The translations under genes were made by a program, and so were the position numbers. The notes beneath the pieces were generated by a model. The model saw only the letters and a program-made list of their open reading frames with translations, had not been told where the DNA came from and did not search any database. A stretch of 64,000 bases of DNA from Pachysolen tannophilus NRRL Y-2460 (lineage: Eukaryota), in NCBI GenBank assembly GCA_001661245.1, contig KV454011.1, positions 124,001 to 188,000 of the forward strand, read 5' to 3'. Positions 9,173-44,990 of the stretch are shown piece by piece. Each line of letters starts with the position of its first letter. The first letter of the stretch is position 1.

Positions 9173-11233
9173 TCAAGCACTTATCTGTTTTTCCAATTCA
9201 ACGTCGTAACCTCTTTGTTTCTTGTAGTCATGTTGATTTGACCTAACCATTTTATACATATCAAATATAGCACTAGGAGTAATTCCTTGTATTCTTCTTG
9301 CTTGACCCACTGTTTCTGGTTGAATTGTATTCAACAAGCTAATGACTTCTCCACTTAAAGATCCAATGCAACTATAATCAAATTTCAAAGGTAAAAGTAA
9401 ATTTTCATCTGCTTTAAACGCTCTCAAATACAGTTTTTCCTTTTTCAAATGACCTGCGTAAATACCTTCAATGGTCAACTTGTCCAAGACTCTTTTAGAA
9501 ACAGTATTTAAGCTAGCATTTGGTAATAAAGGTACTAACAAATCTGCTGTTATACCTTCAAACCTCAATATATCGTAAGCAGTCTTTGGTTTACTATCAT
9601 GATTTATATTCAATGTTGGAAGTTGTGATTGCCATTGGTAAGTTGATTGTTTAAAATCTTTCATGATCGAACGCAATTCATTAAGTTGTTGTCTTTCAAA
9701 ATCAAATTTTTGATATCTTTCTTCACCAACAACTCCATGTCTATAACCAATATCTGTTAATCTTAAATCGGCATTATCCGAACGTACACTGACTCTAAAT
9801 TCTGATCTTGAAGTAAACATTCTATAAGGTTCTTCAACACCTTTTGTTATCAAATCATCAATTAAGACACCAATATAAGCATCTGATCTTGATAATTTCA
9901 TTTGGTCCTTATCTAAATATGATAATCCTGCATTTATCCCTGCAACACAACCTTGTGCACAAGCTTCTTCATAACCTGTTGTACCATTAATTTGGCCTGC
10001 CAAAAAGAGACCATCAATTAATTTTGTTTCTAAAGTTTGTTTTAATTCTCTTGGATCAACATAATCATATTCCACACCATATCCCGGTTGTAGCATCTTC
10101 ACATTTTCCAAACCTTTTATAAATCTTAACATTTTCAATTGAATTTCTTCAGGCATAGTTGTTGAAATCCCATTAGGGTATACAACATTTGTATCTATTC
10201 CTTCTGGTTCCAACCAAACTGTATGGGACTCTTTATCTTTAAATCTAATAATCTTAGCTTCTAATGATGGACAATAACGAGGTCCCTTCACGGTTTCTCT
10301 AATATGGAAAGTCTTATCTAAATTTTCCCTAATTAAATTATGTACTTGAAAATTAGTTCTTGTAGCATGGCATAAAAGTTGTTTTTCGATACTAACTTTA
10401 TCATTCATATATGACATTGGTCTTGGAGGATCATCACCATACTGAATTTCTAAATCGGTATAATCTATTGTTGATCCATCTATTCTTGGAGGAGTACCTG
10501 TTTTCAATCTTCCTAAACGGAATCCTGCTTCATTTAAAGTTTTACTTAATCCATATGTTGCCTTTTCACCTATTCTACCCAGAGGATAAGATTTCATACC
10601 AATATGAATTTCTCCACCTAAAAAAGTCCCTGTTGTAATAACAACTTTAGAAGTTTTCAAAATTTCTCCATTCAGCAAGATAATACCTTTTATCTTACCA
10701 TAAGTTCTTCCCTGTGAATCAACATCGTTATTGTTAAATGGTTCAATAATTAAATCTTCAACACTAGCTTCAAGAATTTTCAAATTTGGATAACTCAGCA
10801 ATTCATTTTGCATCTCTTTTAAATAAATACTTCTATCTATTTGTGCTCTTGGACCCCATACTGCAGGACCTCTGGAACTATTTAAATATTTAAATTGAAT
10901 TCCAGCCTTATCAACAATTTTTGGTGCAACTCCATCTAACGCATCAACTTCTCTTAGCAAAGTTCCCTTACCAACACCTCCCATGCTCGGATTACAAGAA
11001 CAAGTTCCTAATTTCTTAAAATCAGGTGTAATCAACGTAGTCAAAGCACCAGACCTTGCTGAACCTGTTGCTGCCTCAATACCAGCATGACCACCGCCTA
11101 TCACCACTACGGGTAAACTCGTTCTTTTAGACAATACTAATTCTAATTCCGGTGTTACCACAATATTCCTCCTAAAAATGGGAAAACATGGCTTCAAAAC
11201 CCTGTGTAAAAGTAATCCTCTCCTAGCAAACAT
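9173..11233 (-). CDS. MTO1: Mitochondrial tRNA U34 modification enzyme Mto1 (GidA/MnmG)
   Basis: [71 protein letters not shown]. First ATG at 11233 gives a presequence-like MFARR. Confidence 0.97.
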
Positions 11234-12286
11234 CCTGAATAGAAAAGAAAAAGAAAAAAAAATCACCACAACCAATAGATAATCCGTAGACAAGTTATTC
11301 AAAACTTTCTTAATATTAAGAATTTTTCACTCACATACAAAAAAATTTCACTCACTCACTTACTCACTCATACTGACCGTGCAGCTTAAAATTAAATATG
11401 TCCGGGTCGTTCTCCGAATATCAAAATTCCTAAAGAGGAAAAGTTTTCTTTAATACCTCTAACACATAAAATAACCCCAAAAAAAAAAAGAGATAAAGTT
11501 AGCGCTCACTTAATACGTAAAGTAAATATAATAATAATAAATTTATCTGTTTCCTTATACCCATCAAGACTGATTCAGGTAAATTTTATATATTGCAAAA
11601 ACAAAAGAGGGGTATATACTTTTTTTTTCTGCAATATTAAATTTTTATTATACATGTATTATTTATGAAAATAATTAGTCCCGTGCTCCCCTTTCTTTGG
11701 GTTTTGGTAGGTTTTTGGTTGTTTTTGTAGATGTCACCCCGCATTTTTTGAAAAAAAAAATTAACAAATACAAGAAAATAGGAGTGATTTGAAAAATCTT
11801 TAAAAAATTAAAGTAACTAGGAAGGTAATTGATTTTCTAGGACTCTATGATCTTCTGAGTTTAATGGTTGTTGTTTTTTTTTTTGTTTCGGATTCTAGCA
11901 ACAAACGACGATCAAACTGAAAATTTTTCTTTGGAATTGTAACTATAATAATTACTAAAACTTTCAAGATGCATAGACTGATAAATGGTACTTAAGATGG
12001 GGATTCAACTCCATGCTGCTTTATGCTCACACTCCCCACTAACTATTGAACTAGAGTTTAAGTTTTTAAAAATGGGTAGTTTTTTTTGTCTTTGGCCACC
12101 ACCCCTGATCCCACTTTTTCTTTTTGGTTCTGGGGCTATTTCCACAGGCCGTTCTGAAAAAAAAAAAAAGAAAAGAAAAAAAAAAAATTTTTTTTTCGAT
12201 TTCAGAAGAGAAGAAGGAAATGAAAAAAAAAAAAAGATAAAAAAATTTTAAGATTTCACATAATAAAAAATTATACATCTTAGGCG

Positions 12287-13233
12287 ATGAGTACTAAGAT
12301 GAGCACGAAGATGAGTACAAAGATGAACACTGTTCATAGTGTTCTGGAATCAGCAGATCAGTTAGAAGATGGGCTAGAGTATGATGTTAGTGAGGGAGAG
12401 GTAGAAGGAGTAGAAGGAGTAGAAGGAGTGGAAGAAGGAGAGATAGATGATTCAAAATTTGAGACTACAGAGACGATACAAAGTGGAGATGGAACTGATA
12501 AAAAGAGGAAAAGAAAGAAAAATGATAAGTTAGCTTTAAAGAAAAAAATAAAGACAGAATTAGAAATTGATCAAAAGAAAAAACTTTCATTAGAAAAACC
12601 AGATATAGTGGTTGAATATTTTGCTTCAAAGATAAGACAACAACAAAAAGATTTATCACCTTTAGAATTAGGTGAATTATATATAGATGAATCATTTATT
12701 AAATATTCTGGGAATTTTCAACAATTAAGAAATTTAGATAATTTATCAAAATTTATTGAAAATAAATTTCAATCATTTTTACCTAAAATTGATAATAAAA
12801 AGATAATTAAAAAAAAGACACCAAAAAAACAAGATAAAATAGCAACTTTATTAAAGAAAAAGCAAGAACAACAAGAAAATCAAAGACATTTTATAACAAT
12901 TCTTTCAATGTCAGCAATTAGAACATGCGATGTTCATCGTGCAACTAAAAATTTACATTCTATTAAATTAATCAAAAAAAATAAACTAAAAGATGATTTA
13001 GAAACTTTATCAGCAACTTCATCAAGAGTATTATGTGCAACTCCAAGTAGAATGTTAAAAATCTTAGATCAAGCTTCTAGCACTTTATTAAACGAAAAAA
13101 TTTAAAAATAATTATTTTGGATTCTACTTATTTAGATACAAAATTACAAAATATTTTTGACGTTTCCGAGACTTTTAAATTCTTGAAACAATGTTGTAAT
13201 CAAAATAATCAAGTTGAGATTTATCTCTATTAA
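12287..13233 (+). CDS. CMS1: 90S preribosome factor Cms1, with an apparent -1 frameshift at the A6 run 13095-13100
   Basis: DQLEDGLEYD, LSPLELGEL, SAIRTCDVHRA, ATPSRM. The Cms1-like C-terminus (LKIIILDSTYLDTKLQNIFD...EIYLY*) continues in the -1 frame to TAA at 13233. Confidence 0.85.
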
Positions 13234-13857
13234 CAAAAAAAAATAGTTTTTAACCTATATAGAATTAATATTTTTCAGGTTAATAGTTAAAAATGTTATT
13301 ACTCCAATTACCTTTTTTTGCTCCTTTTCTTTTTAATTGTAGATCAATTTTCTGTTTGTGCCTTTTTTGCTTCTGTACGGTAGAGTTAGCTAGGTAATTC
13401 ACGGAATATTCGTATTCTATAATTGCTTTTATTATAGTTGATGATGCATATATTGCAGGAAAATGCTTTTTTGTTTTTTTTTTTGAAGAATTATTAATAT
13501 CCCGCTAAATTGCTGAATTACATCGGCTAGAATATTTATGAATTTATGTCAACTGTAGATTGTTCTTGAAGTGGAGTTTATTGTTATTTTAAAACTTAAG
13601 AGTTAAAGCAAAAACAGAAAGTAAAAAAAAAAAAAAAAAAAGACCAATTAAAAAATAATGACCAAGTATTTATTAATAAGTTTTTGGAATAACCGTTAGA
13701 ATTAAGTATATAAATATCGTAAATATCCTCTAAAGTTTCTAAATTCTTTTAAGATTATAATCCTATAAGCTCAATTGTTATTTATTTTCCCCTAATAAAT
13801 AGTAGTTATTGTAGTAGTTAGTTAATATTGGTTATATCATATTTTTTTTTTGCAAAG

Positions 13858-14949
13858 ATGAAGGTTTTATTGATTTTGTATTCTGCAGGTAAACACGCTG
13901 CAGATGAGCCAAAATTATTAGGTTGTACTGAAAATGAATTAGGTATTAGAAAATGGTTAGAAAGTCAAGGTCATACTTTAGTTACCACATCTCATAAAGA
14001 TGGACCAAATAACGATTTGGATAAACATATTGTGGATTCAGATATTGTTATTACAACTCCATTTCATCCTGGTTATATCACCAAGGAAAGAATTGATAAG
14101 GCCAAGAAATTGAAATTATTAGTTGTAGCTGGTGTTGGTTCTGATCATATTGATTTGGATTATATCAATAAATCTGATAAAAAAATTAGTGTCTTGGAAG
14201 TTACTGGTTCTAATGTAGTTAGTGTTGCAGAACATGTTGTTATGACAATGTTGGTTTTAGTTAGAAATTTTGTTCCAGCTCATGAGATGATTATGCGTGG
14301 TGATTGGGATGTTGCTGAAGTTGCTAAAGATACTTATGATTTGGAAAATAAAGTGATTGCCACTGTTGGTTGTGGTAGAATTGGTTATAGGGTCTTGGAA
14401 AGATTAGTTTCGTTTAATCCAAAAGAATTGTTATATTATGATTATCAAGCATTACCAAAAGAAGCTGAAGAAAAAGTTGGAGCAAAAAGAGTCATTGATT
14501 TGGAAGAATTGTTGGGTAAAGCTGATGTTGTTACTATTAACTGTCCTTTACATGACGGAACAAAAGGTTTATTCAACAAGCAATTAATTTCAAAAATGAA
14601 AAAAGGTGCATGGTTAGTCAATACCGCAAGAGGTGCAATCTGTGTTGCTGAAGACGTTGCCGAAGCAGTCCAAAGTGGTCAATTGAGAGGTTATGGTGGT
14701 GATGTTTGGAATGTCCAACCTGCTCCAAAAGATCATCCATGGAGAAAAATGGCTAACAAGTATCATGCAGGTAATGCAATGACTCCCCACGTTTCAGGTA
14801 CTTCCTTAGACGCTCAAATCAGATATGCCCAAGGTACTAAAGATATTTTGGAAAGTTTCTTGAGTGGTAAGAAAGATTACAAGCAAAAGGATGTCATCTT
14901 GTTGGATGGTCACTATATCACTAAAGCTTACGGTGAGCACAAGAAATAA
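13858..14949 (+). CDS. FDH1: NAD-dependent formate dehydrogenase
   Basis: [92 protein letters not shown]. Confidence 0.97.
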
Positions 14950-15273
14950 AATAAAATAAACTTTTTTTTTATTATTATTATTCTTTATATACATATCTAT
15001 CTATCTATATATATAGATACATGAGATCATGATTATGATGTTATCCACGTTAATGATTTTATATTTTAAATTTTATATTTTTTTTTTTTTTTTATTATTA
15101 TCTTTTTTTTATTTTACACCTTTTATCTTATTAGAGAGAAGAGTTGAAAAGAGAGCTTTTCAAATATTATACAACTCAATGAATTAAAGTCTAACAGTCA
15201 AGTTAAGTTAAGTTAAAACGCAAGAGTAGAAATGTCTTAAGATGTGTGGCGGAGATGACATTCTATATCAGAA

Positions 15274-15476
15274 TACAGCCCTTAAATGTGGTTTTAAAAA
15301 ATAAATTATACATAGCGCCCCTATATTCAAATCTACAGCCTCTGTATTATTTTTTATTTTTATTTTTTTATTTTATAAAAGGGGCTCTCAAATTTGATTC
15401 AAGGGCTGTATATTTTGGATAGGGGCTATATAACAATTTAGGGCTGTATAAGTGTTTTAATAAGATTCGGGGCTGT
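15274..15476. repeat. Two-orientation array of eight (A/G)GGGCT(G/A)TA-like motifs around a central T-tract
   Basis: Reverse-orientation copies at 15274, 15313 and 15334; forward copies at 15380, 15402, 15421, 15440 and 15469. Confidence 0.85.
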
Positions 15477-15621
15477 TTGCATTTGCGTTTGGTGTTCTCA
15501 ACACGACTGTTATAGAAATCAATTATGGTCTAAAAGAAGGAAGTAAAGAAACCTGTTTATATATATATACATAAATAAATATATATATCTTTTGAGTTAT
15601 TGATTGATTATATCTTGCAAT

Positions 15622-18765: not shown

Positions 18766-18995
18766 TAGTCTATATATTTATTTATATATATATATATAAA
18801 TGCATTATATGCATTCAATATTCAAATGAAATGATCTCAATGATTAATTAACGTAATTTAATAGTAGTTTGTAATCGTGATTAGATCTTTATCTATAAAT
18901 TAGGGCAACGTCAAATTTTTTATTATGATTTTTTTTTTTTTTTTTTTAACTCATATTAAAATTTTTTTTAATTAATATTGCTTTCAAAAATTGCA

Positions 18996-20960: not shown

Positions 20961-20980
20961 ATGAAAAATAAATAAGATTC

Positions 20981-21012
<32 letters not shown>

Positions 21013-26659: not shown

Positions 26660-26680
26660 TAAGTATATAAAATTATTCCA

Positions 26681-27280
26681 TTAATTTGATAATAAATAAT
26701 CCCTAAGCTTATCCAAGGCTTTAAATCTATGGCTGATTTTATTCTTAACTTCTTTATCCATTTCCGCATAAGTTTCCTTATAACCTATCGGCTCAAAGAC
26801 AGCATCCCACCCAAATCCAGTGTGACCTCTAGGAGGAACTATATTACCTTTAGTCTTACCTTGAAATAACAAGACAGGTTCCCCTGGACCCGCACAATAA
26901 CCAAACGTACATATAGCATGAGCAGATTTATCCTCATAACAATAAAGTAAATTGTTCAAACCTTGTAATCCAACACCATTGACAAACCATTTAATATAAG
27001 GACCAGGTAAATCATTAAACAGAGTGAAAGCTAAACTGGTATCTTCCACCAAGACAGGACCACCAAGAATCTCAGCAGCTTTCTTGGCCTTACATATAGT
27101 AACCTCATCAATTGTTCCTTGAACTTCTTCTAAATCCACTGAAATATTAGAAATTTCATAATTTCCAACCTTATATAACCCATCAGATGGAGGTACAACC
27201 CCATTGGATAAGATAGCAACCACTTCTTTCAACTTATTGGAGTTCCCAGTAACAAAAGTTAACTTCTTTAAATCAGACAT
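26681..27280 (-). CDS. HAM1: Inosine triphosphate pyrophosphatase
   Basis: [49 protein letters not shown]. Confidence 0.97.
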
Positions 27281-28011: not shown

Positions 28012-28419
28012 ATGTCTCCTCTGGAATCGGTTTTAAAGAAATCTATTAGTTCGAAGTATACAAATCCATTAGCACCGAAAGAACTTACTCAAGGTTCTAG
28101 AACGAATGGTAAAGATTTTAAAATTTCAAAAGATGCTTTTAGAGTTAAAAGTATTGGAGTTAAATCTCCATATGCTAAAAGAGAAGAGAAAAGACTTCTG
28201 GATAAAGCTGTGAGAGATAAATTAAAAGAATTGAAAGAAGAAAAGAAAAATGAGACAAAAACTAGGATTGAAAATTTGAAGAAACGTAGAGAAATAAAAG
28301 AAGAAAAAGAAAGATATGAGAAATTGGCTCTGAAAATGCACGCAAAGAAAATTGAAAGAATGAAAAGAAAAGAGAAAAGAAATAAAATGTTGAAAGAGAG
28401 AAAATCTGGTAATAAATAA
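28012..28419 (+). CDS. CGR1: rRNA-processing protein Cgr1
   Basis: GSRTNGKDFK, EKERYEKLA(CTG)KMHAKKIERMKRKEKRNKMLKER. Confidence 0.95.
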   Translation: MSPLESVLKKSISSKYTNPLAPKELTQGSRTNGKDFKISKDAFRVKSIGVKSPYAKREEKRLLDKAVRDKLKELKEEKKNETKTRIENLKKRREIKEEKERYEKLALKMHAKKIERMKRKEKRNKMLKERKSGNK

Positions 28420-29722: not shown

Positions 29723-31306
29723 TTAATTTAACTCTTTTTCTTGAGTAGCTGAATCAACAGCAGCTGTATCAACAGTAGCGGATTCAATAACTTTAACTTT
29801 TTCGATTTGAACAATATCTTGGATAGTTTCATCACTATCAGCTAAATCTTTCTCTATCTCGGTATGATTAGTGATATCTCTAAAGATTAAAGGTGCAGCA
29901 ATTAATAAACTTGCACCTAATAAAGCCCATGAACTTGCAAATATGTTTATATATGGTTTTTCCATAGCATCAATTCTCCAAATTATAGCAGCACCTGCTG
30001 ATTGAATACCTTTATAAAATCCGTTATAAACTGTTAATTTTCTGGCATTGTTGGATAAACTTCCCATGACCCAATATAAGTACGATTGCCACACTGCATC
30101 GAAAGCACCGTACAACATGAATAAGAAACATGGCCCTCCATAACTCTTATCGGTAAAGTCAATAATCATATCCAGCGCCGTGGCTCTGGTGAATTTTAAC
30201 TGGAAAGCTAAACCACCTCCCCAAATTACAAACGTTAAAACTGTTATTATACACCATCCAATCTTTGCTCTTGTCTTTCTTTGCAATTTGGAATAATCTA
30301 ATATAAGTGTTATGAACATTGATCCAAACATTTGCATAAACCAGTATAATAATGAATTTAATGACCTTGTTCTAACATTAAATCTTCCTGCATTGAAATC
30401 ACTTTGTTGATATGTATTGTACCAATTTGATGCAAAAAACATTGGGAACAACATGATAATTTTTGGCTCAGTTCTCAACACCTTATATAATTCATAAAAT
30501 TCAGTCTTTATTGAAGGGTTCTTTTGATAAATAACTCTTGTTCCGTCAGCTTTCCATACTTTACCAATCGGAAGCAAACACAGACCTAAACATGATCCAA
30601 AAATCATTAATACCAAGAACGCAATATAAGTACCGTCGTTGACAGAACTTCCTTTGTTATTAATATTATCTGCCAAGGGAATAATTGATCCAATAACTGC
30701 ACCCAAGTTGAAAATAACCCAAAATGTCATTATACCTCTACCTTTGGCATTTTCTGCAGGGTAGGACATAATAATCTGAGCTTGAGCAGACCATAACATA
30801 GCAGCACAAACACCCAATATAGCACCAGCAAATATAACAAATCCTTGATTTGCAGTATGGTAATAGCACAAAAGACTTGCAGAATAAAGTGCATAACCTA
30901 AACCACCAAAGGCCAAACATGCTCTAGCACCAATTGTATTACATATAACACCTGAAAAAAACCCAAATGTTGCAAAAGTTGAATACAACGCAACATTAGC
31001 ATTATCAGCCAAAGACACATCCGACAAACCTGCACCACCAATACCTGATAACGCATTGTACATACCTGGAGTTAAGAAACATACAAAACTCACCATAAGA
31101 ATTTGTGATATTGCATCAGAGTATCGTGGTAAAATACCAGGTAATAGACTCTTGTCGTACCATTTATTGGTATATTCTGGCTCAATACCACCATGTAAAA
31201 CTTGCTCATCAACATAAGTAGTAACTTCATTGTCCTTTATCAAAACATCATGTTGCTTATCTGTAGACTCCACAGCTGGAGCCCGATCACTATCTTCGCT
31301 TGCCAT
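29723..31306 (-). CDS. NGT1: UNC-93-like MFS N-acetylglucosamine transporter
   Basis: QILMVSFVCFLTPGMYNALSGIGGAG, MSYPAENAKGR, FWVIFNLGAVIG, FNVRTRSLN, GFYKGIQSAGAA; adjacent to NAG1/DAC1. Confidence 0.88.
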   Translation of the reverse strand: MASEDSDRAPAVESTDKQHDVLIKDNEVTTYVDEQVLHGGIEPEYTNKWYDKSLLPGILPRYSDAISQILMVSFVCFLTPGMYNALSGIGGAGLSDVSLADNANVALYSTFATFGFFSGVICNTIGARACLAFGGLGYALYSASLLCYYHTANQGFVIFAGAILGVCAAMLWSAQAQIIMSYPAENAKGRGIMTFWVIFNLGAVIGSIIPLADNINNKGSSVNDGTYIAFLVLMIFGSCLGLCLLPIGKVWKADGTRVIYQKNPSIKTEFYELYKVLRTEPKIIMLFPMFFASNWYNTYQQSDFNAGRFNVRTRSLNSLLYWFMQMFGSMFITLILDYSKLQRKTRAKIGWCIITVLTFVIWGGGLAFQLKFTRATALDMIIDFTDKSYGGPCFLFMLYGAFDAVWQSYLYWVMGSLSNNARKLTVYNGFYKGIQSAGAAIIWRIDAMEKPYINIFASSWALLGASLLIAAPLIFRDITNHTEIEKDLADSDETIQDIVQIEKVKVIESATVDTAAVDSATQEKELN

Positions 31307-32385
31307 TTTTCCTCTACTTCTTTGCTTTCCTTTCTTTCCTTCAAGAAACACTAACCATAAACCAGAAAATCCAAAACAATTTTAAACCCGGATTTACCCC
31401 TATTTATACTAAGCAACATCTAATCAACTTTACCGCGAGTCCAACTAAAAAACTCAACATTTGCATTGAAAAACGGAATTTTATGACCGCACAGAGATAA
31501 TAAAAAGACTATGCGTACGGCTCAAAGATTGGCAGTTATCGCTATTTTGGAAAATGTAACCTTTGATAACTATAATGCAACACTAAACAGTAACGCTTGA
31601 TCTAGGTGGTCTTCGACTAACTATTAGGTACAATTGATGCTTTACATATCTATCGCCTTTTCTGACTAAGTCATAAAGATCTCCAGATTATATTCATTGT
31701 GTTAGTCTTTAATAGCGATTTTTCAGAAGCCCTGAGAAGATTGGTACTAAAGATTGTTCGCTATTGTTTTACTTTGCAGATACTGACTGTTACAAGTCTT
31801 TTTTCGTACCATCCTCAGACTAATCTATACATCCTCAGCTCCTTAATGGAAAGAAAGATTATGTTACAGCTGTTAATGGGATATTTGATTACACTGTGAA
31901 ATTTTTTTTTTACAAGCTTTTGTCTCCTTATTATTGCACTTTTTCAAAATCTTTATTTCTGTTGGTCAAACCACCTATTTTCTGGTTGTTGACGGAGAGG
32001 CACTATTTAGAGTTGAATCTTAAACGATTGGTTAGCATACAAATATGGCCTTATAGGAGAAAAGTAATTAGATATGATTAATTGTAGATAAGTGTACAGT
32101 AAAATAAATAAAGCTATGTATATTATTTTATTCCGATAACTTATCTTCCTAAAAGTTGGGCGGTGTTACATTTTTTGTCCCCGATGTAACATTGACTTTA
32201 AAGGTACTAAACAAATAATACTGATGGTCGCAATACTATTTTTTTTTTTTTAATGCTCATATCACAATAATTATTCTTGTTGTTATTCTCTTTTCCTTCT
32301 TATAATATCTTTCATTTCTATAAGGTGATTTATCTCTGAACTTGCTAGATAATTTTGTTGTTTTTGTTTAGCAGAAGATTGCATT

Positions 32386-33171
32386 ATGAAATTACAAATT
32401 TATGAAAATAAAGAGGTTGCTTCAAAGCAAGTTGCTTTATACGTTGTTTCCAAGATAAATGAATTCGGGCCAACTCCTTCAAGACCTTTTGTAATGGGGT
32501 TACCTACTGGTTCATCTCCGGAAGGTATTTATCAAAATTTGATTGAATTGTACAATGCTAAAAAAGTGAGCTTTGAAAATGTTGTTACCTTCAATATGGA
32601 CGAATATCTTGGGTTACCTCCATCGGATCCTCAATCATATCACTATTTCATGTACTCGAAATTTTTCAATCATATCAATATAAAGCCAGAAAATGTTAAT
32701 ATTTTGAATGGGTTGACCGATGATGTGGAACTGGAATGTAGCAATTATGAAGCCAAGATCAAGAGTTATGGAGAAATTCAATTATTCTTGGGGGGTTTAG
32801 GTCCTGAAGGTCATATTGCATTTAATGAAAGAGGTTCTTCAAGAGATTCAAAGACTAGAAAAGTACAGCTAGTCGAGTCCACGATAATAGCAAATTCTCG
32901 TTTTTGGAATAACGATACATCGAAAGTTCCAAAATATGCTCTTAGTGTTGGTATATCAACAGTATTAGATAACTCAAAAGAAGTTATAATTGTTGTCTTT
33001 GGGTCAAATAAACATAATGCTTTGAAAGAAACTATTGAAGGAGAAATTACTTCAAGATATCCATGTACTTATTTACAGGAACACAAAAATTGCATTGTTG
33101 TTACAGATTATAGTGCGGTAAATGAAGATGGAAACTTGATTAAAAAAGCTGAAAAGAATAATTTATTATAA
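32386..33171 (+). CDS. NAG1: Glucosamine-6-phosphate deaminase
   Basis: FVMGLPTGSSP, VVTFNMDEY, QSYHYFM, LFLGGLGPEGHIAFNE, ANSRF, VPKYALSVGI. Confidence 0.97.
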   Translation: MKLQIYENKEVASKQVALYVVSKINEFGPTPSRPFVMGLPTGSSPEGIYQNLIELYNAKKVSFENVVTFNMDEYLGLPPSDPQSYHYFMYSKFFNHINIKPENVNILNGLTDDVELECSNYEAKIKSYGEIQLFLGGLGPEGHIAFNERGSSRDSKTRKVQLVESTIIANSRFWNNDTSKVPKYALSVGISTVLDNSKEVIIVVFGSNKHNALKETIEGEITSRYPCTYLQEHKNCIVVTDYSAVNEDGNLIKKAEKNNLL

Positions 33172-33179
33172 TTTAAATA

Positions 33180-34415
33180 TTACGAAAATGTATAACTATC
33201 GGAATTGTCACTAATTTTTTTCCCCAACTTGTAGACTTGTTTGACAAACCCATCTTTATCTAAAATAGTCAAATCAGCATCACATCCAAGGTTTAAAAAA
33301 CCTTTCTTATCTTGAACAGATGTAGCCACTGCCGGATGATTCGTCACAAACTGAACTGCTTCCAGAAGATCTAGTTGACACCACTGCATAATATTTCTCA
33401 AACATTGCAGTAAGGTGGTTGCTGAGCCGGCAATTGTCTCGGTTCCTTTTAAGAAAAGATGATTACCTTCTTTAACTATATATTGATTATTGCTTCCCCA
33501 AAGGTAAGACCCATTTTCCAGCCCAATTAAATACATGGCATCTGTAACCAATATAAGTTTCTCAGAGCATATCTTGTAAGCTGATCTAACTGTAGCAGGG
33601 TGAACATGTACACCATCTGCAATTAGCCCAAAGTACGGAAGCTTGTTCTCCCTAGCTAGTTCAGGCGATGAGATTAACCCAATGATACCAGGTTTCCTTT
33701 GGTGAACTTGTGTCATTGCATTGTAAAGATGTGTAAGCATTGTAGCGCCTTGCCTAACTGCTTTTAACCCTGTCTCGTAATCTGCATTTGTATGTCCAAT
33801 TGCGAAAACTATCTTATGGTCTTTAACTATATTTGAAATAGCAGAGGATACACCTCCAATCTCCGGTGCAGCAGTTATTATCCTGATATTTTTTGATAAA
33901 CCATCAGCATTATATAGCTTAGCCAAATCTTTCATCTCATTTCTAGCCTCTGTCAAAGCACCAATAGGATGGCACCCTTTCTTGGCGGTAGAAATAAATG
34001 GTCCTTCACAATGTACTCCAAGAGAATCCGTCATGTCGCAATTTCTGCTTGGTTTCAAGATAGGTAAAGCCACCTTATAAGTATCACTATAGCTGGACGG
34101 CAAAGTTGGACAAATACTTGTCACTCCAGTTTGAATTAAACTTTTCATTGCCAAATGATAGTTTTCCAAGTAAATTTCTGGTGGGTCTTTAGAACAAAAA
34201 TCAAACCCAAAACATCCATTGATCTGAATATCTATAAAGCCTGGTGCAACTATTAGCCCCTCCAAATCAATTACTTCATCAATCACCGATTCATCATTTG
34301 GCTTTTGTATAATAACACCATTAGTTTGATCAACATACAAATCTTCACCAGGATATAGTCTACCCTTATCACATAGAATACAATTGGTAAATTTAACAAT
34401 AACAATCTTCAACAT
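33180..34415 (-). CDS. DAC1: N-acetylglucosamine-6-phosphate deacetylase
   Basis: APGFIDIQINGCFGFDF, GVHCEGPFI, KKGCHP, ITAAPE, THLYNAM, IADGVHVHP, LVTDAM, IAGS. Confidence 0.96.
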   Translation of the reverse strand: MLKIVIVKFTNCILCDKGRLYPGEDLYVDQTNGVIIQKPNDESVIDEVIDLEGLIVAPGFIDIQINGCFGFDFCSKDPPEIYLENYHLAMKSLIQTGVTSICPTLPSSYSDTYKVALPILKPSRNCDMTDSLGVHCEGPFISTAKKGCHPIGALTEARNEMKDLAKLYNADGLSKNIRIITAAPEIGGVSSAISNIVKDHKIVFAIGHTNADYETGLKAVRQGATMLTHLYNAMTQVHQRKPGIIGLISSPELARENKLPYFGLIADGVHVHPATVRSAYKICSEKLILVTDAMYLIGLENGSYLWGSNNQYIVKEGNHLFLKGTETIAGSATTLLQCLRNIMQWCQLDLLEAVQFVTNHPAVATSVQDKKGFLNLGCDADLTILDKDGFVKQVYKLGKKISDNSDSYTFS

Positions 34416-34899
34416 TCTCCGTTTACAGCAAAATTAAAACTGCTAAACAATACTTTAAATTTTATCAGACATCCCCATATATTTATATAAGGATGGCCCA
34501 CACAATTCCATTTCCATTTGGGTCAGACAATCTCGTGCTCTCACATATCATGATAAAATATTACCTGTGCTTTTGAAATGTGATGAATGCTGCAACGTGA
34601 ATTCACCCCAGTAAAGATCAATACAAGATAAAACTAATCAAGACTGATCTATGCCATCAAGAGAAATGAATAATACCTCTCTACCAATAATACCGCTTCT
34701 TCCTTCGGTATTATTGGGGTATTAATGGTATTATTGGCCGACTGATAAGGAACCTCAAAAAATTGGTTGGTAGTGTATGATTATCTTTAGCCTATTTACC
34801 TGATAACTAAATGATGTAGATTGTTATTTGGAGCAATTTGATTAAAGCTAACTATCTATTCAGATTGTGGATAGTTAGAATAATAGCAGCTGAGTTATC

Positions 34900-37800
34900 A
34901 TGAGTGGTAATATGAGTGGGATAAGGAAGAAGGTTGGACAGTTATTGATGGCCGGTTTTGAAGGAACCACAGTCACTAATAATATTCGAAATTTAATCGA
35001 GGAGTATCATATATCAACAATTATATTGAGTAGTAAGAATTTTGTAAATGCTCAGCAGGTGAAGAAATTAATATGTGATTTACAGAAAATAGCTAAAGAT
35101 TCAGGTCATAAGTATCCGTTGATGTTTGCCATAGATCAAGAAGGTGGTATGATTAGCAGTTTATTTGATGAAAATTATATAACACAGTTTCCAGGAGCGA
35201 TGGGATTAGCAGCAACAGGATCACTGACTCTAGTCCATGATGTGTGTAAGGCAATGGCATTGGAGTTGAAATCTTTAGGGTTTTCTATCAATTTGGGGCC
35301 AGTATTGGACACTGTGACCAAATTTTCTCACCAGTTGATTGGTGTTAGATCATTTGGAAGTACCAACGAAGAAGTTATCAAATACGGGAAGGCTGCAGCT
35401 CAAGGTTTCAGAGATGGTGGATTATTTACATTTGGAAAGCATTTCCCAGGATTGAACAATGCAGAAGTTTCTTCAGTTTTGGAATTACCGATATTAACTG
35501 AAACTTTGGAGCAGGTTGAAAAATCCAATGTTGTCACTTTTAAGGCATTAATTGATTGCGGTTTGATGGATGGAATAAGTGCTGCAGGTGCTGCAGTCCC
35601 CAATATTTCACCAAATGAGGTTCATTCATGCTTAAGTCCCATATTAATTACTGATTTATTGAGAAATAAGCTAAAATTCGATGGTGTTATTCATAGCGAG
35701 TGCCTCGAGATGGAAGCACTATTCTGTAATATAGGATTTAGACAAGGTGTTATAATGGCAGTTTTTGCGGGGTGTGATTTAGTGCTAGTCTGTCATGATT
35801 ATAATTTACAAAAAGAAGCGATTCATGCATTGTCCCAAGCTGTGGAGGATGGTATATTAGACGAAAAACAGGTTATTGATGAATCTATAAGAAGGATTGA
35901 AGTCTTGCAAAAAAGGTTACCAAGTTTTGATGATTTTTTTAACTTGGAGGATTTAGATGATAAAATTAAGCTGGAACACCAAGAATTATCACAATTGGCT
36001 TATCAAAAGTCAATTACATTGGTCAGAGATTATAATAACTGTTTACCCATTACAAAATTCGTCAATGACGATTTACCACTGGAAGAAAACTTGATTTTAT
36101 TGTTAACGCCTGTTTTACAACCTTTGTACTCCAAAAACAGTTGTAACCCTAAAAACAATAAACCGAATAATAAAATATTCCCCGGTGAAGAGGTTTTCCA
36201 AGAATTTGGAAAGATGTTAGCCAATTGCAGCGCTAATACGAAGAATGAGAGAGGAAAGAATTTTAAAGTTCTTCACACAAGTTATACTGCAAATGGTTTG
36301 ACTAATTTACATGAGCAATTGATTGAGAAGGCAAAAGTTGTGTTATTAATAACTTCAGAGACGTCAAGAAATATTCATCAAATCGGTATAACAAAACATA
36401 TCTCAATATTATGTGGTGGTAGTAATCATAAATTACCTTCAAAGAAACCGTTAATAATTATAGCTGTTTCCTCACCTTATGATTTTTTCTATAATAACAA
36501 TATAGGCTCCGCATACCTATGTACGTATGATTATACTGATAATGGCTTGGACAATTTGGCCAAAGTGTTGTTTGGGAAATACAGGCCAACTGGCGTGATA
36601 CCTGGAGAAGCTAATAGTAGCAATAAGCGTAAGATCGAGGCAGAAGCTCAAAGTTTCAAGAAAAGCAAGAACGATTTCTCACAAAGAAGATGGTTAGTTG
36701 ACGAATTCAATTTGAAAAGGGACTGGAAGAATTTGATAAATTTGCTGAGTAACCATATAGATTTCAGTGATAAAGAAGAAGAAGAATTTTCACAATTGAA
36801 TTCGGTGAATTTACAGTACAACAAAGATTCATCATCCGAAAGATATCAATTTTTTGAAAGTGCTAAAAATAAGAAAACTTTTAGAAAGTTTTCAAACAAA
36901 ATTTATCATCTATTAAATGATAATGCAGATACCCAAAAGCACTTTGTTGTGAGAAACTCAAGTTTGAATGTTTTGTACGGTTTTATATTAACATGGTACA
37001 ACGGACATTTAAAAACTGGTAGTATTTTATATATCTTGGTTGATAAGGCAAAGAGAAATCAATCAATAGGAGAGAGTTTGCATTCTAAAGCAATTAAGTA
37101 TTTGATCAACGAGAAACATTGTGAAAGAATCACTCTTGGATGTCTGTTCCCACTTATAGGCTTCCCCAACTTGAGCAACATTTGGTCAATGTCATCAGGT
37201 AAAGATGATGATGAGATTGAAGATATTTTAAATTCTAATGAGGTTTATCTTTTCTTCAAAAGAAAGACCGCTTGGAACCTCAAAATGTTGCTAGCCAACA
37301 AATTCGAAGAACATTCAAGCAAAAGCTTGAATTATATTTTAAAGATAAATGGTTTGAATAGTTGGTCAGTTTCTGAAAAACTTGTCCGTCAACTACAAGT
37401 TGTTGGTATAATGTTTGATCTATGCTCGAATTTTGATGAAGCATTAAAATTGATCGTAAAACATTACAGTAAGAATCCAATGCTATATCCTTTATACAAA
37501 GAAGTCATCAATGATATTAAGAACCCAAACAAAAAAGATGACGCTAAGATAATTGTCGCGTTGGAACCTAGCAACAGATCTGTTGTCGGCAGTATTGTGG
37601 TATTTACAAACTGCTCTTCCGTTTCCAAATTTTTCCCATTCATAGAAGAGGTTGGCGTAAACGAAAATAATGAATCTGTTGATTCAAATAATGTCCTGTC
37701 AAAAGTCGGCGGTTTGGTCGGATTAATCATAGATCCTTCTTACGAAAATTTAACTGATGTTTTTAAGTTAGGGTTGGTTTGCACTGCTTTAAGTTTTTTG

Positions 37801-37971
37801 AAAAGACTGCAGGAAGATAGTAATGGGTTTGATAATGATGGCGGTATTAATGATGTTTTATTAATCGGGATTAATAAGTCCAAAAATAATATCAATAATT
37901 TTAGAGATAATGGTTTTGAAATTTATAAAAAGTACTATGATTGTTATGATGAAAGAGATAAATGGATCTAG
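34900..37971 (+). CDS. NGS1: GH3 beta-N-acetylglucosaminidase-like plus C-terminal GNAT protein (Ngs1 GlcNAc sensor type)
   Basis: GH3 motifs VGQLLMAGF, AIDQEGG, GPVLD, IGVRSFG, KHFPG, AGCDLVLVC; GNAT motif A-like ILVDKAKRNQSIGESLH; lies in the GlcNAc cluster. Confidence 0.88.
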   Translation: MSGNMSGIRKKVGQLLMAGFEGTTVTNNIRNLIEEYHISTIILSSKNFVNAQQVKKLICDLQKIAKDSGHKYPLMFAIDQEGGMISSLFDENYITQFPGAMGLAATGSLTLVHDVCKAMALELKSLGFSINLGPVLDTVTKFSHQLIGVRSFGSTNEEVIKYGKAAAQGFRDGGLFTFGKHFPGLNNAEVSSVLELPILTETLEQVEKSNVVTFKALIDCGLMDGISAAGAAVPNISPNEVHSCLSPILITDLLRNKLKFDGVIHSECLEMEALFCNIGFRQGVIMAVFAGCDLVLVCHDYNLQKEAIHALSQAVEDGILDEKQVIDESIRRIEVLQKRLPSFDDFFNLEDLDDKIKLEHQELSQLAYQKSITLVRDYNNCLPITKFVNDDLPLEENLILLLTPVLQPLYSKNSCNPKNNKPNNKIFPGEEVFQEFGKMLANCSANTKNERGKNFKVLHTSYTANGLTNLHEQLIEKAKVVLLITSETSRNIHQIGITKHISILCGGSNHKLPSKKPLIIIAVSSPYDFFYNNNIGSAYLCTYDYTDNGLDNLAKVLFGKYRPTGVIPGEANSSNKRKIEAEAQSFKKSKNDFSQRRWLVDEFNLKRDWKNLINLLSNHIDFSDKEEEEFSQLNSVNLQYNKDSSSERYQFFESAKNKKTFRKFSNKIYHLLNDNADTQKHFVVRNSSLNVLYGFILTWYNGHLKTGSILYILVDKAKRNQSIGESLHSKAIKYLINEKHCERITLGCLFPLIGFPNLSNIWSMSSGKDDDEIEDILNSNEVYLFFKRKTAWNLKMLLANKFEEHSSKSLNYILKINGLNSWSVSEKLVRQLQVVGIMFDLCSNFDEALKLIVKHYSKNPMLYPLYKEVINDIKNPNKKDDAKIIVALEPSNRSVVGSIVVFTNCSSVSKFFPFIEEVGVNENNESVDSNNVLSKVGGLVGLIIDPSYENLTDVFKLGLVCTALSFLKRLQEDSNGFDNDGGINDVLLIGINKSKNNINNFRDNGFEIYKKYYDCYDERDKWI

Positions 37972-38118
37972 TTTTTAAGCAATTATGTTATTATTATCAC
38001 ATGTATAGGTATTTGTTTAAGGTGTAACATTACTATAAATTATAAATTAAATAGGTAAATTAATAATAAGAAAGACTAAAGGTTAATATAAATATATATG
38101 TATATGATAGTCCTTTAT

Positions 38119-40348
38119 TCAATCATTCTCGCTATGTTTATCAGAAGAATTAAGTATATTCCTTATTCCAATTTTAGTATACCCTCCAATTCCTTGTTTC
38201 ATCATACCTGGACCACCAGAACTGGATTTGCTGTCGACCAAAGTATTACTTTCATTCATAGATTTTCTTCTGTTCCTTACAATTGATGACTGCCTTGGAT
38301 GATGTGCAACATGCGGGAAATACAAAGCATCAAGTGGCGGTAAGTAATAAACGTTGGATAAGGGAAAATACTGATAATTCGAAGGGGATTCCGATTCTTT
38401 CAGTTCTACTGGTTTGCCTGAATTATTATTGCTGGAAGTATTACTGGAGCTGCTATTTATCAGATTTTGTTCATTTTCTTCAATGGCCGGTAACGCGTGC
38501 GATATGTTAGGAAGCCTCAAGAATGGAATAGAATTCATAGGATCGAGTGAAGAAGGTGATCTCCCAATGGATAGTAACCCATTAATATTACCATCATTAT
38601 TTGTTAGGGGGAATGTAGATGTAGAGCCTGCTATTTTATTTTGCTGTTCAATATCATCAGGATATATTTTCTTCTTTGACGGATCTTTAACTATTAAAAC
38701 ATCATTTCTTCCGCTATAAAAACTAGGATTTCTGCCTCTCACTTGTATTGGGTGCGATTTCAAATTCAGTATATGAACTTCGGCTTCTTCATTATCTCCT
38801 TTTTCGACAATAAACGATAATGATATTATGATGTGATAGTAATTTTGGAAAACAGTAGATTTACCATTGTTCGGGGTGGCATTTTTAAATTGAACTTTCT
38901 TCAAAATGAATTTGAAATTATGAAACTCTGAGATATCCAATGAGCTTAAAGATATTTCCTGAGTTAATGAGTTTAAATAATGTACATTTGATGGAATGTC
39001 TTTATGATTAGATGACTTCTTATTATTACTATTCTGGGAATCAGAGGACATGGAATCAGAATTATCATTAAAAATCAATAAATCAATCTTGTCATCTGAA
39101 AATTTTGTAGTACCATAAACGGACAATTTAAAACGCTTTATTTTACTTTTCTTGTAATCTTTAATAATTGAAAAAATTGGTAATTTTGTAAATGATAAAT
39201 TAACTGATAACTGCATGAAATTTCTTCTATAACAAGAAAGGTTTTTAATTTTTTGTTCTTTTTGAGTATCAGAGTACAAAAACCTACCATCCATTTCTCC
39301 TTTTAAATCCAATGTAGTTTTATCACCATTTTCATCTAATAATCTAAAACTGTTTTCGTCCTCTTTTACAATTAAATCTAATAAATAAGCATATTCGGAG
39401 GAGCAATTTGTTTTCGCCAGTTTTTTTTGACATCTTTTGCTGATTTTCAATTTCCCGAGGTGATAAAATCTGTTGATCTCTTGATGCAGATCCATTCATT
39501 ACTTCTGTTTCCTGATAAAGAGAAGGGAACTTTAAAGGTAAAGATGAAGATGATGTAAATTGATTCACTATACTCGTAGGTGAAGACATATTTGTCTTTC
39601 CAACGAAATGATTGAAAGAGTTATTGTTGTCATTGTTAGAAATGGATGCATTCATATCAATTGATAAAGATTTTTCTGTGTCGTTGTTTACATTGTTATG
39701 ATCATTTGGAGTATTACCTAAAAGATCCATATTACTCAATCCAGCAAAATTGTTATTCGTAAAATTATGCTCAAGGTAAGTCCCAAAAGGTTGCTGTTGC
39801 AACTGCTGCAGTTGCTGTACTTGATGATAATGATGTTGGTGATGATGATTGTGTGGCTGATGTCGATTCTGCCGCTCTTCATTATACTGCAGATAAGGAT
39901 AAAGCGGCAAAGTCGCATTATCACTACTCATAAATGCTGCATTATTAAAATTATTGTTCAGAGTATCATTATTTCCAGCATTTTGAATCACGCCATTGAA
40001 ATAATTGGCTCCATTATTATCATTTTTATTTTGATTGGCATTAGAGTTTGAACCTGTCGACAATGATGCTTCTAAAGGAATATATGATTGATAGTGCGAA
40101 TGGCCTGATAAAAATGAATCTGGCTGATTATGATAGTAATTCCCCCCATTGTTAGTATTAGTACTATTATTGCTGTTACTTTCGACTGATATTGGGGAAG
40201 TTGTAGATTGTTGCTGTCGGTACTGCTGATGCGGTGTTTGTTGATTATGTTGATGTTCTTGCTGCTGATAATTTCTCTGATTGATATTACTTAAAATTTC
40301 TAAATCAGGTAAAAAGAGAGACGCAAACTCATCCTCTATTGACGACAT
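38119..40348 (-). CDS. Ndt80/PhoG-family transcription factor (Ron1/Rep1-like), split by an apparent +1 frameshift at the A8 run 39421-39428
   Basis: Downstream ORF has the Ndt80 motifs SCYRRNFMQ, KKVQFKNATPNNGK, FQNYYHII and SHPIQVRGRNPSFY. The upstream Q/N-rich ORF overlaps it, and removing one A fuses them into about 742 aa. Confidence 0.85.
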
Positions 40349-40758
40349 TTGGCTAAATTAAGATAACAAATCAATTTCTTTTTTTTTTCTTTTTTTTTCC
40401 CAAAAATGATTGAAATATCTGTAAACAGCCTGGATGTAAGTGTAGCTCCTAGATACAAAGATTAATTATGGTTATAAAAATATATCTCTTTAATCGATAA
40501 AAGTAACATAACGTTACAATAATCTTAAAACTTTTTTGATCTTTAGTACCTCTTTATGATTTCTCCTCCTCGTCTGCCGTTCCCCGTTCTGCTGATAAAG
40601 GATTTCCTATACAACGTTACATTTTCCAAAAAACAGCTTGTTGATCGTTAGTACACTACCTACTTTAGCTATTAGAAAACCAACAAGGGCTCTTTCCAGA
40701 GCTCAGAACGACGAGAACGGGAACCAGTAACAGTTCCAGGAACGGCTCCAGTACTAAG

Positions 40759-40857
40759 ACCAGGACCAAGACCAAGACCAAGACCAAGGTCTGACCTGGC
40801 TATAGACTCAGATTCAATTCCAGGCTCAATTCTAGGCTCAAGTTCATAAGCTCAGGT
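40759..40857. repeat. Short tandem repeats: (GACCAA/G)x5 and three degenerate AGGCTCAA units
   Basis: Read directly downstream of the MoaD-like stop codon. Confidence 0.6.
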
Positions 40858-40866
40858 GAAAACTTA

Positions 40867-41208
40867 TCACCCCGCTGATACTGGCGGTATAATTGCAACC
40901 TCATCACCATTTTTCAATTCTAATTGCAACTCTTCCAGCTGGAAAATTTCCAGTAATATCTCCGATAACGTTTCATCACTAGCTGAATTAATGATTTCCC
41001 TTGCATTTATATCCAATTCAATGTACTCGTAATTAAGCGCCATTCCACAAGACCTTATAACATACTTAACAAAGGAAAGCCCATACGTTGCGTGCAAATA
41101 AAGAAATAACAGTATCAAACTACCATTTTCAAGTGTTATCTCTTCCGAGCTTATATTATCCGTAAACTGTTTCGAAGGACCAAAATACTCCACTGAAATC
41201 TTGAGCAT
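40867..41208 (-). CDS. Molybdopterin synthase small (sulfur carrier) subunit, MoaD/MOCS2A/CnxG-like
   Basis: N-terminal ISVEYFGPSKQF, ALNYEY, C-terminal LKNGDEVAIIPPVSAG with terminal Gly. Confidence 0.85.
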   Translation of the reverse strand: MLKISVEYFGPSKQFTDNISSEEITLENGSLILLFLYLHATYGLSFVKYVIRSCGMALNYEYIELDINAREIINSASDETLSEILLEIFQLEELQLELKNGDEVAIIPPVSAG

Positions 41209-41525
41209 TGTAGAACACTTCTTCGTACTAATTTATCTTGCCTTCTTCTCGCCTTTGTCACTTAATCGGACTTAGTTTAAAGCGAGATCTTGCTCCATTT
41301 ACCATTTATTTACTAACAATCAATATAGCCCCCGTTACACTCAGAATTACCCGATTTGGAATACCACCTTTATTTTGTACCTTTTTTTTTTTTTTTTTTT
41401 TGTTCTATGAGCTGAGGGCGATCTCGCCTAGCTGGCAGGGAAAAGAAAAGAAGAAAAGAAGGTGAAGAAGAATATATATATGAATATATTTGGGGTTTCT
41501 GTTTATCTGGGTATTATTGAAGGAT

Positions 41526-42221
41526 ATGATGCTTGGATTTCTGCAGGTAAGGGTTTTTGGGCGCTTGAGATGTGCTAAAAGTGTAAATGGTTTTAGCAAA
41601 GGATCTTTTAATTTTTATTCTTCGAAACCAGAAGTTTTGTCGATTAAAGATGACAATTTAAACAGGCCAACACCATGGCAAAGAATGTCACAACAGAAAA
41701 GTTTAATCAAGCCTCTGTTATTACTTGTACTTTTAGGTTCTGTGGTTATAAATATCATCAAAGAGAGGCGGGAGTCTGAGGATTTGGATTATAGGTATAA
41801 GTTAAAATTGAATATATTGGAAGATATCAAGAAGAAATTACGTAATCAGGAACCAATAGATTTGAACGATGAATTAAGAGTCATTAATAGATTATTTGAA
41901 AATTTAGGTTATGGTGGAACTTATTTTAAAGGGTATGTGGAAAAACCTAATGCCAATGATTTTCAAAAGACAACAGATAGTGAGATAAATCAATTTTTCA
42001 ATATTATTGCTGAAAATGATCATCCAATGGACAATAAATTGTTAAAAGAAACAGAATTAATAAAAGATTCAATGAATGATGGTGAAAGAAAAAATTTGGA
42101 ACAGGTAAATGTTAAGAAATTAGAATCTCAAAGTTATAAAGAACCTGTTGATTCGCAAATATCACACACTACAAATTATACAGAATCTGTTTCAAACACA
42201 AAATTGGGAAAGTTTTTATGA
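41526..42221 (+). CDS. INA22: Mitochondrial inner membrane assembly complex subunit Ina22-like
   Basis: LIKPxLLLVLLGSVVINIIKERR...RYKLKL...DELRVIN resembles Ina22 as I recall it; convergent with DAL81 as in S. cerevisiae. Confidence 0.75.
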   Translation: MMLGFLQVRVFGRLRCAKSVNGFSKGSFNFYSSKPEVLSIKDDNLNRPTPWQRMSQQKSLIKPLLLLVLLGSVVINIIKERRESEDLDYRYKLKLNILEDIKKKLRNQEPIDLNDELRVINRLFENLGYGGTYFKGYVEKPNANDFQKTTDSEINQFFNIIAENDHPMDNKLLKETELIKDSMNDGERKNLEQVNVKKLESQSYKEPVDSQISHTTNYTESVSNTKLGKFL

Positions 42222-42437
42222 ACCTATATATATTTATCGTCTTTCCTATATTGTAAATATAAAAATATTAATGTCATTATCTATTTTCAAGTCTTAGATC
42301 ATATATAATAATATAAATCTATACATGAAGCGCAATTTCATAAGTCTCTAATCCCTAAATCTGGATAAACTCAAAGGTTAAAATTATTGGTCAATAAACT
42401 GCTATTGAGACATGTAATAACAAAAAAAATTTTGTTT

Positions 42438-44990
42438 CTACGAATTCTTATCAACATCTCTCACATTATTATTATTATTATTGGTGATTCTTAGTGAAGC
42501 ATTTCTTTGTGTATCTTCGTCTTGATTTTCATCTACATTCCCATCCTCGACTGCATTTTGCTTATAATCCTTCTCCTCCTCTTCCTCCTCCTCACCATCA
42601 TCATGTTTGATGGCACGAGAAAACCTATTGTTGTTGTTGTTGTTGTTGTTGCTACTACCGTTGTTGTAATATTCAAGCGGACTGCTATGTCCTGATGAGC
42701 CACTATTATTGTTACTGTTATTCCTTAATTGTGATCTTTGCAGTATTATCTGCTGAGGAGATAGTTCGGGTGATGAGTCATTTTGCTGTTGCTCCCGAGA
42801 ATTCATTAGCGATCTTTCACTGCTATTACCGCTATTATTGTTGTTATTATTGGAATTTTTATTTGACGAAGCTGTAATCACATTATTTTGCTGAGATAAT
42901 GGAGAATTGACCATTGGTGTTGAAGGCTTAGATTGTTGTTGCTGTTGTTGTGAATAGGACGGAGAGTGAATGCTGCTTTGCCTTGAAGCTTGATTCCCCA
43001 GCCAATTACTATTAGGATTATTATTAGTGTTGCTGTTACTATTATTACTATTAACACTGGCATTACTGCTCCGTCTCTTTCTATTATTATTGTTGTTCTT
43101 TTTATTATTGACAGCATGCTTAGATTGCTGCTGTTGATGCTGCTGAGGCCCTATAATCGGCGAACCATCACTGTTAAAACTAGTTGAACCTAATGTTTGG
43201 ATAGGTTGTTGTGGTGGTATAAACATATAATTTGAAGATCCGGTATTATTATTATTATCAAATAACCCTGGAATATGGAGCAATATGGTATCTAATTTTT
43301 CTAATGCATTGCCAGCCTGATCAAACCCTTTGGCACTGACCCTTAGTATCCATCTGTAATTGTATACTTGGTCTTTGAACAAACTTGCTTCTTCATTTGA
43401 GGTAGAGGTCACAAATAATATCGCGGCAAACGTTCCAATTAATGTAAAGTTTGCAGTTGCCGAAGAATGCCAAAAAGCGTGGATATGTTCTGGTTTCAAT
43501 GATCTTACGAAATCTATTGCTGCTAATAGTCTAGTCTTAGCAGCACTTCGACAAACATGGATCAATTCCGGTGGGCAATCGTTCGTCAATGTGGATATAA
43601 TTTTCCTGTGTAAAGTTATTTCTGCGGCAAAATATGCCAATTGCAAATAACCATTAGGATTCAATTTTCTAGGTTGGATTGATGACATTTGTAAATCTTT
43701 TGGAAGGGAATGATACCACTCTCTCAATTTTAATTGTAAAGGTTTTGCCAATTTTAAAACTTCATCTATTCTATTCACAAGTTCTGCAGCAGAAATTGTG
43801 AAGAATGTATCCAAAATTTCAGATAATATTTCACTAAGTGAAATCATTTCTTTGAACAAATGTTTCCCATTTTCTATATCTGTAGAACCTTCTTTGAAAG
43901 TATCCGCCTCATTAGATTTTTCAGGGAAATCCTCATCAGTTACTCTTTTAACCATCCAATTTTTACCCTCAGCTATATGAGAAGGTCTTGATTCAATTAA
44001 TGCTAACCATTTATCCTGAACATACACTGCCCAAGCCAAACGCCTTCTCAAACCTCTTTCCCATTTTGGTAATCGCCAATTTGCACAATCTAAACCTAAA
44101 CCTAATTCTTCCAGTAATGAAACAACTTGTGAACATAATGCCCAGTTCCTCGCATGATCAGGTCGGCATTGTAATAATAATAATCCTGCTTGAACAGCGC
44201 TTAACTTGGGTCTTTCAATTACATCAGAAAATGTACTTATTGCCAATTTATTTAATGCAACGACATTAGGTTTCTGGTGTTGGCTCAATTGAGGATCATA
44301 ATCCCACCATTGTATAGCTAATGAGTAGACGGCAGCCAACAAAGGAGCACTGAACTCTCTATGTGTTCTTGAATATTTCTCAAGAAAAACTTTTTTATGT
44401 AAAACTGGGAACGATGGATGAACTATTCTGAAATATAAATCGATTAGAATTTGCCCATGAGGAGCAACAAATCTTTCCACTGCATCAACATCTCTTTCTG
44501 TTCTTTCGTACAAATCTGCTGTGTAATCATCTCTTAAGGTGAACTGAACATTTGGAGCTACTCTTCTTAAAGAAGTTGTAGGGTTTAATTGAACTTGATC
44601 AATTTTATCCAATTTTATCGTATTCAACAAAAGTGGATCATATACAGATGAAGGTCCAACATAGAAACTAGATCTTGGATATTGCAAGCTTAAAGTTTTT
44701 TTCAATAATGAATTTCCTGGCATTGAAGAATAATCATGTACTGGCTCAACTTCTCGTATTGGCACCGTTGGTGGAGGATGTAACTCATCCACTATATATT
44801 TTGCCTTTTTGATAGTCCCCATTTGATCATTTAGATTTTCAGACGATCTTTTCAAAGCACCACTATCACTATATGTACATTTTAGTCCTTTCAAATCACA
44901 CTGAGCACAATTATTTGTCTCCAGATTGAACGAACATTTCGTCTTTCTTCTTCTACAATGGTCACAAGGACGCACTTTTGATTTCAGACG

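Follow-up and report, generated by a model that had tools for sequence, protein, structure and literature searches.

The window considered here is a stretch of 64,000 nucleotides from Pachysolen tannophilus NRRL Y-2460 (positions 124,001 to 188,000 of contig KV454011.1; G000:C1:124001-188000), within an assembly of 12.6 Mb in 197 contigs. It is AT-rich budding-yeast DNA with a GC content of 30.7%, its open reading frames (ORFs) largely lack introns, and 111 CTG triplets are found among the 14,401 codons of 29 window ORFs. The subject of this report is the reading of these codons. A first-pass annotation, made by a model from the letters alone, had proposed on the strength of six CTG positions that CUG is translated as alanine in this genome and had placed the DNA in the clade of Pachysolen, Nakazawaea, and Peterozyma. 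Both proposals stand: we regard it as practically certain that the genome of Pachysolen tannophilus reads CUG as Ala in its nuclear code (code 26, which we take to be the “NCBI table 26” of the CUG=Ala code) by means of an Ala-derived tRNA(CAG). The case is made by a tRNA(CAG) of alanine identity, the rejection of Leu, the Ala majorities at the cited conserved sites, and the match to the species. As for the last, the Pol3 protein encoded on the window's contig, when translated under table 26, matches a database protein labelled Pachysolen tannophilus (P0121) at 100% identity across 89% of its length, and the next-best relatives reach 73%. This gene points to Pachysolen itself and supports, at the species level, Pachysolen tannophilus as the probable source.

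All six codons named in the first-pass annotation are indeed CTG, in frame, and flanked by the residues quoted, and Ala, which the first-pass annotation had given as the homologous residue, is the commonest residue at each of them. In the case of the Mto1/GidA gene (ORF 9173-11233), codon 218 (10580-10582, minus strand) aligns with Ala in 82, Ser in 36, and Leu in 1 of 119 homologs, with Gly at the matching position of Escherichia coli MnmG. Codon 351 (33363-33365, minus strand) of the Dac1 N-acetylglucosamine-6-phosphate deacetylase gene (ORF 33180-34415) falls in a column with 74 Ala, 20 Pro, 20 Glu, and 4 Gln among 118 homologs, without Leu or Ser; a Dac1 paralog (P0243) likewise has Ala there. 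The codon in the gene for a Dal81-like Zn-cluster factor (44112-44114, minus strand) matches Ala in 81, Gly in 41, Ser in 17, and Leu in at most 1 of the 148 homologs (out of 150) that align at the site, and its Pfam Fungal_trans domain scores 5.3 bits higher with Ala than with Leu and 3.3 higher than with Ser. The remaining three were compared with structures in the PDB. The sole CTG of the Ham1/ITPA gene (27020-27022, minus strand; ORF 26681-27280) matches Ala in four of the five alignments shown and Lys in the other, three of the entries being human-type ITPA and hence one protein; its Pfam score favors Ala by 2.8 bits over Leu and 2.2 over Ser. The Cgr1 codon (28330-28332, plus strand; ORF 28012-28419) matches Ala in all three alignments, which represent two distinct proteins, and the whole ORF, with its three CTGs, gains 2.8 bits for Ala over Leu and 1.2 over Ser. 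The sole CTG of the Nag1 glucosamine-6-phosphate deaminase gene (32731-32733, plus strand; ORF 32386-33171) matches Ala in four of the five alignments shown and Lys in the other, with Pfam differences of 1.7 bits over Leu and 0.6 over Ser. A seventh codon, in the Cse1 motif MI(CTG)LP, matches Ser in Saccharomyces cerevisiae, just as had been stated, and the other three Cse1 CTGs, read by eye against the yeast structure, align to Glu, Leu, and Glu.

Around the Nag1, Dac1, and Dal81 sites, contigs from four public runs (representing at most two samples, one of them possibly the source of this DNA) are identical to the window, with zero substitutions; the Ham1 and Cgr1 sites are uncovered by the long public-run pieces listed. 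None of the public runs listed was of RNA. The homolog counts are to be read with the understanding that the homologs are mutually related, that table 26 was used in translating the queries, that database proteins from recoding yeasts are possibly mistranslated at CUG, and that several PDB entries are the same protein. Further, the six cited sites are a favorable selection and overstate the alignment signal.

A tRNA with a CAG anticodon and a G3:U70 pair, which the first-pass annotation had named as a check on its proposal, was found once by a pattern search of the genome. No tRNA gene was found within the 64-kb window, and this one lies outside it (locus L031, G000:C6:217831-217902, minus strand); it is 72 nt long, without an intron, and combines a 5' GGGC, G3:U70, A73, and G37 with the absence of a long variable arm. 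It is identical to the genome's own tRNA-Ala(AGC) at 54 and to tRNA-Ala(UGC) at 51 of 74 aligned columns, as against 42 to 47 identical of 82 to 84 columns for four Leu and Ser tRNAs of the genome (42 for each 82-nt Ser tRNA). The Leu and Ser tRNAs compared carry C3:G70 or A3:U70, and the genome's Ser tRNAs have a long variable arm and G73. ARAGORN labels the gene Leu, from the anticodon alone, and an Rfam tRNA search of the genome, which scored 63 of about 1003 candidates, missed it. Its thermodynamic folding is cloverleaf-like, with no signal relative to shuffled sequences (z of -0.59), and was not used as evidence. A tRNA(CAG) of the Leu or Ser type was not recovered by four exact-match pattern searches of the genome, in an assembly that has gaps; a very divergent gene could escape searches of this kind. 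The Leu-type 5'-half pattern recovered the anticodons AAG, UAA (four copies), and UAG across the genome, and no CAG. Five CAG candidates with longer spacing (L089-L093) were set aside, since none is a tRNA according to ARAGORN and reversed-pattern controls gave similar counts.

Two other observations concern the genome's tRNA complement. The sole tRNA-Leu(UAG) found (L037:1401-1537, minus strand, on G000:C8) has a 52-nt intron and must read CUA and leave CUG. On a mitochondrial-like contig (G000:C10; L008 and L010), ARAGORN reports a 76-nt tRNA-like gene with an AAA anticodon, which resembles the adjoining tRNA-Met(CAU), and a 73-nt AAG tRNA.

The best account of the above codons and tRNA is that a gene derived from a tRNA-Ala carries the anticodon CAG, with its acceptor stem remaining of the alanine type (G1-G2-G3-C4, the G3:U70 wobble pair, and A73) and with no long variable arm. 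The alanyl-tRNA synthetase is reported to read the acceptor stem (G3:U70, A73) and not the anticodon (PMC4937558); because it ignores the anticodon, it would charge this tRNA(CAG) with Ala, and CUG would be read as Ala across the nuclear genome. The codons, the tRNA features, the lack of a competing tRNA(CAG) in the searches made, the match to the species, and the exclusion of Leu come from the present analysis, and the charging and the inserted residue from the literature. Indeed, CUG=Ala in Pachysolen tannophilus was described by Muhlhausen et al. in 2016 by mass spectrometry, Ala accounting for 97.2% of the 907 CUG positions that had ion support (PMC4937558). A further study gives Ala at 243 of 256 CUG sites of this species (the count being in its supplement) and defines an Ala clade (PMC5951914). 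Nakazawaea peltata also uses CUG=Ala, and this code serves as a diagnostic character of the order Alaninales (PMC6041473, PMC11182611). The statement of the first-pass annotation that the code is established for Pachysolen, Nakazawaea, and Peterozyma thus agrees with the literature (PMC4937558, PMC5951914, PMC6041473). The CUG=Ala reading is already known here, Pachysolen tannophilus being the code's type species and neither a new member nor a variant.

Several parallels are offered by the known recoded yeasts. With respect to the published Pachysolen tannophilus tRNA, the gene found here has all the features listed for it, namely, the 5' GGGC, G3:U70, A73, G37, and the lack of an extended variable loop (PMC4937558); no difference was found in a comparison by these listed features. 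In Nakazawaea and Peterozyma (Alaninales), the same code is associated with a tRNA-Ala(CAG) bearing G3:U70 and A73 (PMC5951914, PMC6041473, PMC11182611), though the Nakazawaea peltata tRNA is said to share only Ala-consensus positions with that of Pachysolen (PMC6041473). The CUG-Ser1 (Candida; table 12) and CUG-Ser2 (Ascoidea, Saccharomycopsis) clades are described as having reassigned the same codon, likewise through an anticodon-mutated tRNA and a synthetase that ignores the anticodon. They differ in that their tRNA is a tRNA-Ser(CAG) bearing G73 and a long variable arm, and most CUG-Ser2 species also keep a tRNA-Leu(CAG); neither of these was found by the searches of this genome.

Because the six cited sites had been hand-picked, Pfam scores were also obtained for ORFs at large, with CUG translated as Leu (table 1), Ser (table 12), or Ala (table 26). 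For the window, the tally drew on 28 ORFs, two of them without a Pfam hit, and covered 25 domains, the domains of six ORFs being left out as equal under all codes; the summed scores favor Ala by 33.4 bits over Leu and by 12.0 over Ser. Upon removal of the six domains bearing the cited sites, these become 17.2 and 3.1 bits. Elsewhere in the genome, 29 stretches provided 92 CTG-bearing ORFs, of which 70 were scanned; 56 windows were prepared, 50 submitted, and 46, with 63 CTGs, scored under all three codes, four being dropped for a missing score (one of these was scored under table 26 only). Among these 46, Ala outscores Leu in 37 and the reverse holds in 8, with a sum of 39.1 bits. Over all 65 unselected domains, Ala exceeds Leu in 49, and the reverse holds in 14 (sign test P of about 1e-5). 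Likewise, the share of Leu in the aligned columns is 13% for CTG, as opposed to 54% for the other CTN codons and 71% for TTR. Where Ala and Ser differ by at least 1 bit, Ala is preferred, at 10 to 1 over all domains and at 6 to 1 once the cited sites are set aside. The first-pass annotation had named as a check a table of the residues aligned to CTG; on this count, Leu is rejected by unselected domains, but Ala and Ser tie in them.

This tie heads a series of observations that weigh against the alanine reading. The unselected domains are split 29 for Ala and 30 for Ser, with a summed difference of 4.6 bits, and the 46 genome-sample windows alone are split 20 to 23, with 1.5 bits. Leu outscores Ala in 15 of the 71 domains tallied. 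In the 12 alignable CTG columns, the mean frequency of Ala is 0.19, with 0.13 each for Ser and Leu, and that of Ala at GCN codons is 0.64. Leu is the most frequent residue (44 of 119) in the column of Mto1 codon 146, and one of the Cse1 CTGs, as noted above, matches Leu in the yeast structure. Nor do the public records of Mto1 (at all four CTGs) and Dac1 add independent evidence, as they carry Ala at these positions because they were annotated with table 26. The homolog sets of four proteins contain 18 CTG sites (4 in Mto1, 8 in Pol3, 3 in Dac1, and 3 in Dal81); Ala is the majority residue at 3, all chosen by the first-pass annotation, and Leu and Lys at 1 each, the sites without a majority being variable or gapped; the eight in Pol3 are uninformative, three being in gapped or unconserved ends and the others variable or occupied by Lys or Thr/Ser. 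Per 1000 residues, 3.7 CTGs occur within Pfam domains and 7.0 outside them. Ala and Ser are left unsplit by the Pfam scores because CTG mostly occupies variable positions. This in turn might be because CTG is a captured codon, which would have arisen by one-base changes from codons for Leu, Met, Val, Pro, Gln, or Arg and not from GCN. As the unselected sites fail to separate Ala from Ser, the case for Ala is carried by the tRNA, by a small number of conserved columns, and by the published proteomics.

The most pointed of the contrary observations is Dac1 codon 299 (33519-33521, minus strand), which adjoins the conserved TDAM motif and is matched by Leu in 112 of 118 homologs (95%). An assembly error was considered and rejected as its source, since the contigs of the four public runs, whose independence is uncertain, have the same letters. 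It raises the possibility, which we consider unlikely, that CUG is for the most part Ala but that a minor share of Leu persists and is put to biological use at certain codons, such as this one. Such a share could be produced, by a similarly doubtful route, through wobble reading by tRNA-Leu(UAG) or through mischarging of the A35- and G37-bearing tRNA(CAG) by leucyl-tRNA synthetase. In line with the latter, G37 is reported to promote Leu mischarging in Candida (PMC5951914), and about 3 to 5% of the published CUG positions are non-Ala (PMC4937558, PMC5951914). However, it is reported that the absence of the variable arm should block leucyl-tRNA synthetase and that matches to residues other than Ala lie at the level of noise also found for AUG (PMC4937558); it is on account of the latter that we rate residual Leu so low. 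Moreover, as TTG or CTN becomes CTG by a single-base change, occasional Leu-to-Ala cases would be expected under a plain alanine code. At the position of codon 299, Leu is retained in the second Dac1 paralog (P0243), which is 55% identical. Codon 299 is probably a one-base Leu-to-Ala substitution in a duplicated gene.

The reading of CUG as Ser, as in the CUG-Ser clades (table 12), we hold to be very improbable, even though in unselected Pfam domains it does about as well as Ala, outscoring Leu 47 to 15 and giving the tie described above, and the Cse1 codon and part of the Mto1 218 column (36 of 119) agree with it. Against it, neither the long variable arm nor the G73 of the genome's Ser tRNAs is present in the sole tRNA(CAG) found, Ser is the majority residue at none of the 18 aligned CTG sites, and the published proteomics of the species gives Ala (PMC4937558, PMC5951914). 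The least credible is the standard code, with CUG as Leu and the six sites as chance substitutions that were picked out. In its favor are the hand-picking of the sites, the conserved Leu at Dac1 299, and the presence of a tRNA-Leu(UAG) that could in principle read CUG by wobble, but the unselected domains prefer Ala over Leu by the wide margin given above, Leu is depleted at CTG columns relative to other CTN and TTR columns, and a tRNA(CAG) of alanine identity is present.

Nag1 and Dac1 are part of an N-acetylglucosamine catabolic cluster (29723-40348), along with a major facilitator superfamily (MFS) transporter, presumably Ngt1-like, a protein combining GH3 and GNAT, and a regulator of the NDT80 family, which we take to be Ron1-like. 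Two overlapping minus-strand ORFs (40348-39344 and 39495-38119), the latter belonging to the NDT80/PhoG family, are one base out of frame. In the contigs of all four public runs, the T run from 39421 (within 38119-40348) is one base shorter, which would give a single ORF of about 742 amino acids; the shift in frame appears to stem from a homopolymer error in the present assembly. Small intergenic insertions at 31901 and 32238 are present in the contigs of all four runs. The assembly has N gaps at 4026-4748 and 45907-46401, one of them inside the 5' part of the Dal81-like gene. Runs of CTG at 7245-7500 (plus strand) encode the N terminus of a CENP-T-fold protein, whose ORF has 17 CTGs, as poly-Ala under table 26, and CAG/CTG runs in the NF-YA/Hap2 gene (4772-5749, minus strand) give Gln-Ala tracts under that table; both look like products of trinucleotide slippage.

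Reassignment of a sense codon in a nuclear genome is very rare and hence important; for this species it has been known since 2016, and it defines the Alaninales. In practical terms, all the protein-coding genes of the window (45-63895, irrespective of strand) need to be translated with NCBI table 26, as the public protein records already are, and the code change is one that can be detected from raw sequence. If a small Leu share were real after all, there would be residual CUG ambiguity in the Ala clade, and the conditionally expressed N-acetylglucosamine genes would be the place to look for it.

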